From Ignavibacteria bacterium (GTDB lineage Bacteria > Bacteroidota > Ignavibacteria > Kapaibacteriales > UBA961), in contig JADJXV010000002.1 in the NCBI GenBank assembly GCA_016720145.1, forward strand, positions 152,279 to 216,278: a DNA stretch of 64,000 nucleotides, given 5' to 3'. Position 1 is the first letter of the stretch. Each line of letters starts with the position of its first letter. Positions 6,857 to 45,162 of this stretch are shown one piece after another. Made by a program: the position numbers and the translations under genes. Under the pieces are notes generated by a model. The model was given only the letters and a program-made list of their open reading frames with translations. It made no database searches and was not told where the DNA came from.

Positions 6857-8684
6857 TTACTTCCTGATGATGAGTTTTGAAGTAAATAATTCATTAGGCG
6901 TTCTTAGCTGAAGAAAATACTCTCCGTCGCTCAATCCCAAGCTGTTTAAGCGTTGTGTATAATTTCCGAGCGTTGCATCTGCCTCCCACACAGTGAGCAC
7001 CGGCTGCCCTTTCAGGTCGGTAATCGTGAGGGATGTGCAGCCCGATTCGCTGAGCACGAAATCAATATCTGCCGATGCACCAGCTGGATTCGGCCTAATT
7101 GCCACCAAAGTAGCAGGCGCTACTCGTTTGAAGAGGCGTACCGTATCACCTGAACGGCACAAATCTTTGATGAGAATCTCACCGTTTGTTTTATTCACAC
7201 GCAGACCACTTTGATTTTCAATTGTGATCGTGTCGAGCACGAGTGGCGTTCGGTCAGCATTTCCCAACATTACTTTAAAATTCACGGTAGCGAGTATCTG
7301 CGCTGATTGAGTGATTTTGCCGATAATTTCCATAATGGCGTCATTGCCGTCGAAGGTCACGGACTGCGAAGCACCCACCGGCAAGAGGAGCGTGTTGTTG
7401 TAGCGTACTCGGGCGGTAAAGGTTGGTTGAGCGGAAATATCTATTTGATTTGACGAGACTAACGTCAGCGGCACACTCACCGTTTCATCAAGATTTGCTT
7501 CGCTTTTGGGGAGAGTAATTGTGACTACCGGCAATCGGCTATCGTCGACCGTCACTGTTTGCTGTGCTGTCGTTGTATTGCCATGAATATCCTTCACTGT
7601 CCACGTCACTACTGTTACTCCAATAGGGAAATACTGTCGGCGCATCATTAGTAACGCTCGCGATGCTGCAATTATCCGATGTAACGGGCGTGCCTAACAC
7701 AACATTCGTAGCCGTTGAAGAACCGTTATCTGTGGGAATTGATATATTAGCCGGCGCAGTAATAAGCGGGACTTGCGTATCAACGATCGTAACGGTAGCT
7801 GTAGCGATTCGCTTGTTCCCGTTCAAATCTGTGACGGAAAGGGTAACGGTATTCACTCCAACACTACTACAGCCAAATGAATCAGGAGTCACGGTCATGG
7901 AGTCGATACCGCAGATGTCGTTACTTCCATTATCAATTTGACCTACGGTAATTTTTGCTACGCCTTGAGCATCTAATGGCAGCACGATATTCTTGGTAAT
8001 AACTGTCGGCGGTGTATTTTTTACATAGAATGGCTTTCCGTATCCCCAATTAAGTTTATTCGATTCCTGGACATAGAATTGGTACAAACCCTCCGGCACT
8101 TTAGGAGGAATCTGCCATTGATGTGTTCTACTGTTGGCAATCTTTTCGACTACTAATGCTTGGGTAATGAAAGGTGATATTCGTACTAAACTCAGGTCAA
8201 TATTCCATCCGCTGCAGCCGCCGAGCCATTGTATGGTTACGGGCGCACATTCTTCAAGAGTATCGACTATATCCGTCAACACAAACGGGGAATTAACATA
8301 GACCATCACATTGGCTGAACTGGAATTACCGCTTGTATCCCGCACGGTAAAGACAACGGGATTAAAACCTATGTTGCTACAAGTAAAGGTATTAGGCGTT
8401 ACAAGCATAGTATCAATTCCGACATCGTCAGTGCTGCCGAGATCAATTTGGGCGGGGCTAACGATCACACTGTCATTACTTCCAAGCTGTACATAAGCTG
8501 TATCTCTATTGCGTAAAATTGGTGGGGTATTGTCAATGACCTGTGAAAGCTGTATAAAATTATCAGCGGATTGAATAGGTTTTGCCTCCGTCCCTAATGG
8601 TAAATTAGCAGCAGACTTCGGAAGGGCATCTACTCCATAAACAAGCGAAAATATAATCATCACAGTAGTAAGTAGTATTCTCAT
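6857..8684 (-). pseudogene. HYR-domain repeat protein with a T9SS type-A C-terminal sorting domain. It is split into two ORFs (7539..8684 and 6857..7648) by a +1 frameshift inside a HYR domain.
   Basis: The upstream ORF ends ...SVTNDAPTVFP|YWSNSS... The downstream ORF begins ...QYFP|IGVTVVTWTVKDIHGNTT... Removing one C from the ccc run (plus strand ggg at 7626-7628) gives a continuous HYR domain, TVFPIGVTVVTWTVKD. The C-terminus ...YFLQLRT...FTSKLIIRK matches a T9SS CTD. Confidence 0.6.
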
Positions 8685-9038
8685 AGTTTCCTGTCGAGTA
8701 AATGAATTTTTAGTGCCAAACCTCTCTGGTAATAATCCTGCACAAAGTTAACGTTTTAGGCAAAAGTAACAAGCATTCACGCTATATTTTATAAATAAGC
8801 GCTCCCCCAAGCACGAGCGTTACTATTTTTCAGAATATCAACGTGCAGCAAAAAGAACAGTATCCACGCTGCCTTTTTTAAACGTAACTGTGCACTTAAA
8901 CCAAGAAATATGCCCCAAATATCAAACTTCTCCCCCACCCTCAATTTCCCTTTCGTCGAATTTCCCTTTGCCGTGTGTGCTCATTTCCCGAATTTTGAAG
9001 AAATTATTGCGAAATCCAACCATTAAAGGCAAAAAATA

Positions 9039-10043
9039 ATGAATATTGCGGTACTCCTTGGCGGTATTTCTGCCGAACGAAACGTCTCTATAGCAGGTGG
9101 CAAAGCCATTGCTAACGCACTGACAACACGCGGACATACCGTGACGCTCATCGACCCTTCCCGCGGCGCTGATGCCGTTGTCACAGCCAGCATGCTCACC
9201 GAACTCGCCTCCGAACAGGTCAGCGATATCATCCTCGCCACTTCAAAACGTGAACTCATCAATTGTGTAAACTTATCAATCTTTGACTCTATCGACGTGG
9301 CATTTACTGTGCTCCACGGCACAGCAGGCGAAGATGGGATCATGCAGGCACTCCTCGAAGCACGCGGTGTGAAATATACCGGCAGCAAAGTACTCGCAAG
9401 CGCGCTGGCAATGGACAAAGCAGCGTCGAAGGTGATGTTCTCAGCAGCAGGAGTACAGACTCCTCTTTGGAGCGTCCTCCGCGGTGAACAATTAGACGAT
9501 ACCGAGCATCTGCGTGAAATTCTCGATGAAATGCGCGGCATTGTAGTAGTCAAGCCGAATGACCAAGGTTCGACCGTTGGTATGAGTATTATTGACAACG
9601 ACTTAGATCATTTTCACAGCGCAGTGCATCTCGCCGCTAAATTTAGTAACACTGTGCTAGTCGAACAATTTATCGAGGGGCGTGAATTGACGGTTGCAGT
9701 CGTGGGAGATGAGGCATTACCAATTATTGAAATCGTACCCGAAGGTGGGTTTTACGACTACGAACACAAATATACCAAGGGCATGACACGGTATATTTGT
9801 CCGGCGGAGTTGTCGGAGGATATTGTCGATTTCGTTCAAAATCTCGCTCTCACTGCTCATAAAATATTAGGTTGCACTGCTTACAGCAGAGTCGATTTCC
9901 GTTTGGACGAGGATAATGTGCCTTTCTGCCTCGAAGTCAATACTTTGCCAGGATTTACCGAAACGAGTCTCGTGCCAATGGCAGCAGCGGCAGCGGGAAT
10001 TGAATTTGGAGAATTGTGCGAACGGATTATCGAGCTGTCGTAA
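9039..10043 (+). CDS. ddl: D-alanine--D-alanine ligase
   Basis: The N-terminus MNIAVLLGGISAERNVSIAGGKAIANAL is typical. ATP-grasp motifs are present. Confidence 0.9.
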   Translation: MNIAVLLGGISAERNVSIAGGKAIANALTTRGHTVTLIDPSRGADAVVTASMLTELASEQVSDIILATSKRELINCVNLSIFDSIDVAFTVLHGTAGEDGIMQALLEARGVKYTGSKVLASALAMDKAASKVMFSAAGVQTPLWSVLRGEQLDDTEHLREILDEMRGIVVVKPNDQGSTVGMSIIDNDLDHFHSAVHLAAKFSNTVLVEQFIEGRELTVAVVGDEALPIIEIVPEGGFYDYEHKYTKGMTRYICPAELSEDIVDFVQNLALTAHKILGCTAYSRVDFRLDEDNVPFCLEVNTLPGFTETSLVPMAAAAAGIEFGELCERIIELS

Positions 10044-43914: not shown

Positions 43915-44087
43915 TTCACTTCTAATATCTCTGTAATTTTCAAAAATCAGCTAAAGCAACAACCAATATGGTGCATATTATCTTTTCACAAACTCCACGT
44001 TAAATCTATATAAAATCGTATATTTGGGTAATTGTGATTTGTTTAATGAGCCGCACGTTCTGCATGCGGTGTATTTGATGTAGTTAA

Positions 44088-45162
44088 TTGATGAATACGC
44101 ATCCCCTCCCTCTATCTACACACCTAATTGTTCGTCGATATTTATACCTGAGGATTTCTATTTTTTCGTTAATCATTGCTTTGACATCGGTGTATGTTTT
44201 CAGTTTACCAATGTCAATCCCGATACAAATCTTTCTATTTATCACCCTTACGTTTCTATTAAATTTACTTTTTATAAGTAATTTGGTCAAGTTTCTTAAT
44301 CAAATAAGCGAGACACCGTTTGTTCAAATTACTGAAGCCGCGAAACTCGTCTCCGGCGGAGTAACGACAGCCCGTGCAGTACTTGAGGCCATGCCGACAT
44401 CCGAGGCATTCCGCGCCGCCGAAGCAGTGAATGCTCTTGCCGATAAAGCAGGGAAAGATATAGCCGAAATGAAAAAATTAGAACGGGTACGGTCGGAGTT
44501 TTTGGAATGTATCGCACGAACTCCGCACGCCTATATTCTAGATTCAAGGTTACCTCGAGACTCTCCTAGACGGCGCTTTGGAGGACAAAGACGTGAGCCG
44601 AAAGTTTGTCGAGCGCGCCCATCAAAACACCAAACGTCTCAACATATTACTATCCGATTTAATTGACATTTCCAAGATTGAGTCCGGTGAAATGCGACTG
44701 AGTTTCCGGTATTTTAATCTCTGTGATATTATCCGCGAAACAATTGCATCACTCGAATTTCAGGCCACGTTGAGTGATGTTGAACTCTCATCTAATTGCA
44801 TAAATGAACAAGAACTTATGGTCTATGGCGACAAAGAGCGTCTCGCACAAGTAATTGTCAATATCATGCAGAATGCTATAAAATATAATCGTGAGAAGGG
44901 TACTGTACAGGTCATAGTCGAGACGCGAGCTCAAGACGTAAAAGTAAGGATAATCGACACAGGGATTGGAATTCCCGAGGAACAGAAATCGCGGATTTTT
45001 GAGAGATTTTACAGGGTCGATTCAGGACGTTCGCGGAGTGTTGGCGGTACTGGCTTGGGACTTGCAATCGTTAAGCACATTTTAGAAGCGCATCAAGCAC
45101 CATTTGGCGTCGAGAGTACACTTGGTGTTGGTACGGAGATTTGGCTGGTGTTGAAGAGGTGA
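44088..45162 (+). pseudogene. Membrane sensor histidine kinase carrying both a 1-nt frameshift (about 44497-44510) and an in-frame TAG (44539-44541) inside the HisKA H-box region
   Basis: Frame A reads ...KKLERVRSEF. Frame B reads [14 protein letters not shown][TAG][50 protein letters not shown]..., then an HATPase_c domain (...IDTGIGIPEEQKSRIFERFYRVD...GGTGLGLAIVK...). Two TM helices are present N-terminally. Confidence 0.6.

Follow-up and report, generated by a model that had tools for sequence, protein, structure and literature searches.

Seven gene-breaking lesions in a Kapabacteria metagenome contig are probably residual consensus errors

Introduction

A 64,000-nt stretch of the genome of an uncultured Ignavibacteria bacterium (assembly GCA_016720145.1, contig JADJXV010000002.1, positions 152,279 to 216,278 of the forward strand; hereafter, the window) raises the question of why six of its genes are interrupted by frameshifts or premature stop codons and its core genes are not. 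The window carries rpoBC with a ribosomal protein cluster, nuoLMN, an lpxD-fabZ/lpxC-lpxA-bamA-skp-uppS cluster, genes for proteins sorted by the type IX secretion system (T9SS), and a group II intron. The interrupted genes encode a HYR-domain protein, a sugar ABC transporter permease, a DUF1573 protein, a PD40/OmpA protein, a PhoR-like histidine kinase, and the intron reverse transcriptase (RT). The original prediction, made from the sequence alone, had left two readings side by side: an error-prone assembly with homopolymer indels and C-to-T miscalls, or a lineage in which secreted and sensor genes are decaying as pseudogenes. Here, we present evidence that the lesions are probably residual consensus or polishing errors of a long-read metagenome-assembled genome (MAG) built at low coverage.

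The nearest relatives of the window are MAGs named Candidatus Kapaibacterium or Ignavibacteriae, with 74% nucleotide identity and approximately 79%–80% amino acid identity over the PD40-OmpA and kinase genes; this places the window in the Kapabacteria. Scans of genome and metagenome contigs returned no same-species match, the best amino acid identity being 79%–80%. Within the collections searched, same-species sequence was found only for the DUF1573 gene and for none of the other broken genes, and, in that search for the species, exact look-ups of window proteins, of the truncated fragments, and of the repaired full-length proteins gave no match.

Results

Seven lesions in six genes

Three-frame translation recovered all seven of the predicted gene-breaking lesions, and Pfam scans of the minimally repaired proteins revealed one known domain crossing each of them (Table 1). 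Minimal repair produced full-length proteins with complete domains for all broken genes; the spanning domains are HYR with the T9SS tail, BPD_transp_1, DUF1573/Ig, PD40 with OmpA, HisKA with HATPase_c, and RVT_1 with GIIM. The lesions belong to the deposited assembly because the NCBI protein records end at two of the TAG codons: the permease is annotated as a truncated 224-amino acid protein (MBK9247069.1) and the DUF1573 protein as a truncated 124-amino acid protein (MBK9247091.1).

Table 1. Coordinates of the interrupted genes, the group II intron, and the candidate hicA lesion in the window
Feature	Position	Strand	Lesion or remark
HYR-domain protein with T9SS sorting tail	6857..8684	-	1-nt insertion in ttt/ccc run 7626-7631
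Sugar ABC transporter permease, 290 codons	12619..13491	+	in-frame TAG 13291-13293
DUF1573 protein, two Ig-like domains, 242 codons	40528..41256	+	in-frame TAG 40900-40902
PD40 beta-propeller/OmpA protein	41888..43914	+	frameshift within 43378-43430
PhoR-like histidine kinase	44091..45162	+	2-nt deletion at 44504-44505 and TAG 44539-44541
Group II intron	58256..60204	+	Rfam D1-D4 58256-58486, D5/D6 60056-60204
hicA toxin gene, possible eighth lesion	33092..33291	+	frameshift candidate at A3 33105-33107

The premature stops at 13291, 40900, and 44539 are all TAG, as had been noted. Their proposed origin in C-to-T miscalls did not hold, because the ancestral codons are CAG, AAG, and TCG, which require three different substitutions (C>T, A>T, and C>A). 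It had also been claimed that every frameshift is a gain or loss of one nucleotide in a short homopolymer; the kinase gene has instead lost 2 nt, and the PD40-OmpA shift, which may lie in a CT repeat (+2), is probably a second 2-nt event. The tracts at the shift sites are runs of 2–5 nt or (CT)4, with both insertions and deletions represented. The range that had been given, 6857–45162, takes in all of the lesions except that of the RT gene near 59362, which lies outside it, and a likely frameshift in hicA had been overlooked. Finally, the term "accessory" describes these genes only loosely: the kinase is PhoR-like, and the DUF1573 and PD40-OmpA genes are conserved across the class.

Constraint on the broken genes

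The stop codon of the DUF1573 gene falls between the two Ig-like domains of the protein. The same-species European Nucleotide Archive (ENA) contig L165 (97.8% nucleotide identity) reads AAG, for lysine, at this codon, and protein P0363 from a second ENA contig likewise has lysine there, so this lesion is absent from same-species contigs. The window and L165 differ at 17 positions, all of which are synonymous or non-coding except for TAG versus AAG, and codon comparison gave 16 synonymous and 0 non-synonymous changes. Neutral drift of the window gene over its half of the divergence from L165 would be expected to leave approximately 25 amino acid changes; none was observed. Six of the 17 differences are packed into 39 nt (40862–40900) that end at the TAG, five of them synonymous and the sixth the TAG itself; this is either a short stretch in which the strains diverge strongly or a tract exchanged by recombination, directly at the lesion.

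In the permease, BPD_transp_1 (residues 88–280; Pfam) spans the stop, and the Logan contig L161 (86% nucleotide and 96% amino acid identity) has TTC CAG at the site of the window's TTT TAG. The two genes differ by 87 synonymous and 12 non-synonymous codons, and only one non-synonymous change is found in the 65 codons 3' of the stop. The permease gene ends at 13491, and the open reading frame (ORF) at 13561–14283 is a separate lipoprotein gene. The permease is solitary: no binding protein, second permease, or ATPase gene adjoins it, and its next neighbor is the uncharacterized lipoprotein gene. The same pair is found in L161, there with an intact permease under strong purifying selection. The 456-amino acid protein encoded upstream of the permease gave only a weak CBM9 match.

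Both kinase lesions fall in the H-box, within the HisKA domain (residues 134–200) that spans them. The frameshift is the loss of two G residues, with GGGG in relatives reduced to GG: the sequence is GAGTTTTTGGGGAAT in every relative but GAGTTTTTGGAAT in the window (the same site can also be written as TTTTTGGGGAAT in relatives and TTTTTGGAAT in the window). The TAG replaces a TCG of the relatives, which encodes a serine that is invariant among homologs, and the 27-residue H-box motif is otherwise identical in all aligned homologs. The two lesions are 37 nt apart (P ~0.03 under uniform scatter). For the catalytic half of the kinase, downstream of both lesions, the ratio of non-synonymous to synonymous substitution rates (dN/dS) was 0.033 versus L001, where dS exceeds 1 and is saturated, so that only dN is informative. 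A 7-bp inverted repeat, CGGAGTT (44494–44500) and AACTCCG (44519–44525), flanks the 2-nt deletion; the coding sequence probably contains it by chance.

Judged from these sequence comparisons, all testable broken genes show strong purifying selection up to and past the lesion. The low dN/dS beyond the lesions implies that the genes were fully constrained until very recently or still are, and the lesions are evolutionarily young. Comparison with orthologs, proposed with the original prediction, found relatives to be intact at the permease, DUF1573, PD40-OmpA, and kinase sites. Decay of secreted and sensor genes as a long-term process in the lineage, one of the two readings first offered, is therefore contradicted by the constraint past the lesions together with the intact lysine codon of the same-species contigs.

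Remaining lesions and a candidate in hicA

In the PD40-OmpA gene, the PD40 part and the OmpA part are in different frames. Placement of the shift is ambiguous, with a net change of +2/-1: it lies either in (CT)4 at 43378–43385 (+2) or in A5 at 43406–43410 (-1). Removal of one CT from (CT)4 yields a 10-residue loop and a protein of 674 amino acids, which matches seven relatives (10-residue loop, 674–676 amino acids), whereas extension of A5 to A6 gives an 11-residue loop unlike theirs. The true terminator, TAG at 43912–43914, coincides with the end of the relatives' proteins.

Removal of one C from the HYR gene gives a protein of 608 amino acids in which the HYR domain (residues 301–379) is complete across the junction (profile positions 1–81 of 81) and is followed by a Por_Secre_tail at 531–606. 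No relative was found for comparison.

The RT/maturase ORF of the group II intron (58697–60039) is frameshifted at gg 59362–59363. Adding one G restores SDKGTPQGGIISPILANIYLH, and the repaired protein has RVT_1 at residues 101–328, spanning the shift, and GIIM at 355–424. The intron is structurally complete, with only its RT ORF damaged, and is intergenic, between a TPR gene and a holin-like gene (Phage_holin_4_2) on the opposite strand.

In hicA, the toxin domain is encoded in a frame that lacks a start codon and opens immediately 3' of a TGA; an ATG at 33092 belongs to a different frame. Extension of A3 to A4 would join the two frames into a 66-amino acid HicA, a repair that is plausible but not proven, as the HicA_toxin profile is matched only at positions 10–56 of 58. 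The hicB gene (32875–33075) is intact, and the hicB-hicA pair sits between nuoM and the gene for a T9SS-sorted protein.

Core genes and density of broken genes

Of 55.4 kb of coding sequence, 24.7 kb belongs to core genes, all of them uninterrupted and full length, in agreement with the original prediction. NCBIfam equivalogs were used to check rpoB, rpoC, the genes for L7/L12, L10, L1, and L11, nusG, and secE; Pfam was used for ddl, lpxA, lpxC-fabZ, lpxD, the two skp genes, bamA, uppS, and nuoL/M/N. Six of approximately 46 genes (12%) are broken. If pseudogenes make up 1%–3% of the genes in a finished genome, about one broken gene would be expected here (Poisson P for at least six, 0.0006–0.004). 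The density of broken genes is far above the usual level of finished free-living genomes.

Other features of the window

The nuoL-nuoM-nuoN cluster (28604–37234) is interrupted by other genes, with a DUF420 gene between nuoL and nuoM and, between nuoM and nuoN, the hicBA pair, the gene for a 616-amino acid T9SS-sorted protein, and an ORF of 87 amino acids. Five tRNA genes (Trp, Thr, Gly-CCC, Gly-UCC, and Tyr) at 26479–26968 lie upstream of a secE-nusG-rplKAJL-rpoBC cluster without a tuf gene, and the tRNA genes are followed by an AT-rich, ORF-free gap of 700 nt (26969–27676). An intact ORF of 303 amino acids on the reverse strand (2146–3057) clearly encodes the C-terminal domain of a 3-hydroxyacyl-CoA dehydrogenase; no NAD-binding domain model matched the first 200 residues, and these contain no GxGxxG motif.

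Provenance of the assembly and a control locus

Three window proteins are listed at NCBI as "MAG: ... [Ignavibacteria bacterium]" on a 429,628-nt contig: MBK9247066.1 (Ddl) and the truncated permease and DUF1573 proteins. Contig L076, which has a name of the form "tig..." and comes from an activated-sludge long-read project, carries MBK6834187–191. From these accessions, we infer that the window proteins fall inside a plausible block of approximately 1083 activated-sludge MAGs from the project of PMC8012365, in which Kapabacteria MAGs are labeled as class Ignavibacteria. PMC8012365 describes MAGs assembled from Nanopore R9.4.1 reads with CANU and polished with Racon, with two rounds of medaka (r941), and with a single short-read round (Racon, Illumina). 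Among the MAGs listed there, coverage is mostly ~6–15x for Illumina and ~9–25x for Nanopore, with a few higher. According to PMC9262707, short-read polishing is required to clear homopolymer indels from R9.4.1 assemblies.

As a control, 21 kb of L076 (JADJDM01, Aved_18-Q3-R54-62_MAXAC.142) was examined. Its secDF is split into ORFs of 359 and 711 amino acids (4170–5249 and 2083–4218, reverse strand) through the loss of one T from a homopolymer (T6>T5) at L076:4217. In L116, a JGI contig from an independent assembly (Ga0208115_1000002; 97.8% amino acid identity), secDF is intact as one ORF of 1055 amino acids (2058–5222). The split in L076 indicates that frameshifts persist in the PMC8012365 data set, that a core gene can carry one, and that their density there is roughly that of the window.

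Discussion

The lesions of the window are probably best read as residual errors of consensus building or polishing. If so, low-coverage long reads with a high error rate, most likely from Nanopore R9.4.1, would have been turned into the MAG through a pipeline that was most likely CANU, Racon, two medaka rounds, and one Racon round with Illumina reads. At approximately 10–25x Nanopore and 6–15x Illumina coverage, errors in long homopolymers would mostly be fixed, and scattered short indels and substitutions would persist or would arise during polishing. An error landing in a gene would split the ORF or create a premature stop, and the gene would be functional in the organism. Technology and coverage are here carried over from the presumed project to the window's MAG, and the miscalls would date from consensus building. 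The two kinase lesions, only 37 nt apart, look like a local consensus failure, which also fits the single-step loss of GGGG to GG better than two independent mutations do. Of the two readings first offered, an error-prone assembly is better supported in its general form: the accessions fit a low-coverage Nanopore project in which another MAG has a split secDF, the broken genes show no relaxed selection, the DUF1573 stop is missing from same-species contigs, and broken genes are far denser than is usual. The specific combination of homopolymer indels and C-to-T miscalls fails.

Several observations weigh against this explanation. None of the seven (or eight) lesions falls in a core gene, although such genes span 24.7 kb (for seven random events, P = 0.016), and core avoidance by the six broken genes gave P = 0.029 (Fisher, 0.032), values that are only nominally significant because the core and non-core categories were chosen post hoc, with the data already seen. 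The pattern is not that of classic Nanopore errors: the lesions lie in runs of 2–5 nt and include insertions, and the 83 homopolymers of at least 6 nt that lie within intact ORFs are all free of shifts. Alongside three nonsense substitutions, many more missense errors would be expected. The same-species contigs differ from the window by 2.2% of nucleotides and are other strains, so a strain-specific mutation is compatible with the intact lysine codon. The tie to the Nanopore project, moreover, is made through accession-number ranges and naming, not through the record itself.

The skew between core and non-core genes favors a different account. Under it, the lesions are genuine loss-of-function alleles of very recent origin that have reached fixation or high frequency in the Kapabacteria population sampled; the genes they disable, for surface proteins, sensors, transport, and mobile elements, are dispensable, and purifying selection keeps the core intact. 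We regard this as unlikely, although more than the skew speaks for it. The clean long homopolymers indicate that the consensus is not grossly unpolished; two lesions in the kinase are what would be expected of an already dead gene; and at sites strictly conserved in the outgroup, the window's kinase has slightly more residue changes of its own than the sister lineage has (10 versus 3). In general, intron ORFs are often found decayed and toxins inactivated, which also counts in its favor. Set against these points, 12% of freshly broken genes, none with relaxed constraint, would demand a burst that is extraordinary for a free-living bacterium. The DUF1573 gene has none of its ~25 expected non-synonymous changes and its stop is missing from the same-species contigs, the permease is conserved past its stop, the kinase lesions are close together with a GGGG>GG change that is unusual as a single mutational step, and a frameshift in a core gene was demonstrated in another MAG of the presumed project. 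A genuine recent burst in a natural population of activated-sludge Kapabacteria that hit T9SS cargo, OmpA-family, DUF1573, phosphate sensor, and transport genes, with the core protected, is in our view also unlikely; phages, predators, or a mutator episode might have driven it. A mixture of artefacts and real lesions is possible: some lesions could be real even if others are artefacts, and those of the intron RT and hicA would be the likeliest.

Long-term reductive evolution would make the six genes old, slowly eroding pseudogenes. The presence of several broken genes in one window and a permease without neighboring partner genes fit such a history, which is nevertheless very improbable: dN/dS is far below 1 in every testable gene, downstream parts included; each gene except the kinase has a single lesion; all of them regain full length and complete domains after minimal repair; the solitary permease and lipoprotein pair is also found in L161, where the permease is intact; and the lesions at the permease, DUF1573, PD40, and kinase sites are not shared with relatives. 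Programmed recoding, by which TAG readthrough or reassignment and programmed frameshifts would allow full-length proteins to be made, is harder still to credit. It draws on the fact that three of three premature stops are TAG, which has a probability of ~0.04–0.1 by chance. The residue opposite the in-frame TAG differs from site to site (Gln, Lys, and Ser), and TAG genuinely terminates the PD40-OmpA gene, at the same residue as in relatives, as well as the ORFs at 3746 and 4810. At the shift sites of the kinase and PD40 genes, relatives keep a single reading frame, and none of the five tRNAs in the window has a CUA anticodon.

Four narrower mechanisms were also considered. Phase-variable contingency loci need tracts of ~7 nt or more or many repeat units, and the tracts here are 2–5 nt or (CT)4. 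Dcm-type 5-methylcytosine deamination, or miscalling of 5-methylcytosine as T, as the cause of the TAG-only pattern was rejected, as it does not agree with the three ancestral codons; CTAG shows its usual depletion (32 sites against 85 expected), and there is no enrichment of CTAGG/CCTAG. Classic miscalling of homopolymer length is not supported, given the 83 unshifted runs. A Racon 500-nt window-boundary artefact found no support in the lesion positions, which show no regularity modulo 500, a weak test that takes no account of the contig offset.

The chief value of these results is one of caution, as the truncated 224-amino acid permease and 124-amino acid DUF1573 protein are annotated as complete, and entries of this kind then pass into protein databases. 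Should the lesions be genuine, genes of an uncultured sludge bacterium would have been inactivated selectively and very recently, which would be of modest ecological interest and a well-known type of event. Nothing is mechanistically new under either reading, and the observation is real yet ordinary.

Pseudogenes have built up in the recently niche-restricted pathogens Salmonella Typhi, Shigella, and Mycobacterium leprae. The window resembles these in that genes for surface proteins, sensors, and transport carry frameshifts or nonsense codons and the core is intact; unlike them, it has no raised dN/dS or shared lesions, its lesions are essentially single and young, and its organism appears to be a free-living sludge bacterium. 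In classic lacI genetics, amber hotspots arise by 5-methylcytosine deamination at CCAGG (Dcm) sites. Such a hotspot would explain the CAG>TAG change in the permease, where L161 reads TTCCAGG, but not the DUF1573 and kinase TAGs, which derive from AAG and TCG. The third comparison is with the residual errors of Nanopore R9.4.1 assemblies, as described in PMC8012365 and PMC9262707. The window differs from these in that its lesions lie in 2–5-nt runs or a CT repeat and include insertions and three substitutions, that 83 long homopolymers are spared, and that its sequencing technology is inferred; it is like them in being part of a MAG contig several hundred kb long in which repair of 1–2 nt restores split genes that bear no evolutionary sign of decay, and the secDF frameshift in a sister MAG of the presumed project is a further similarity.

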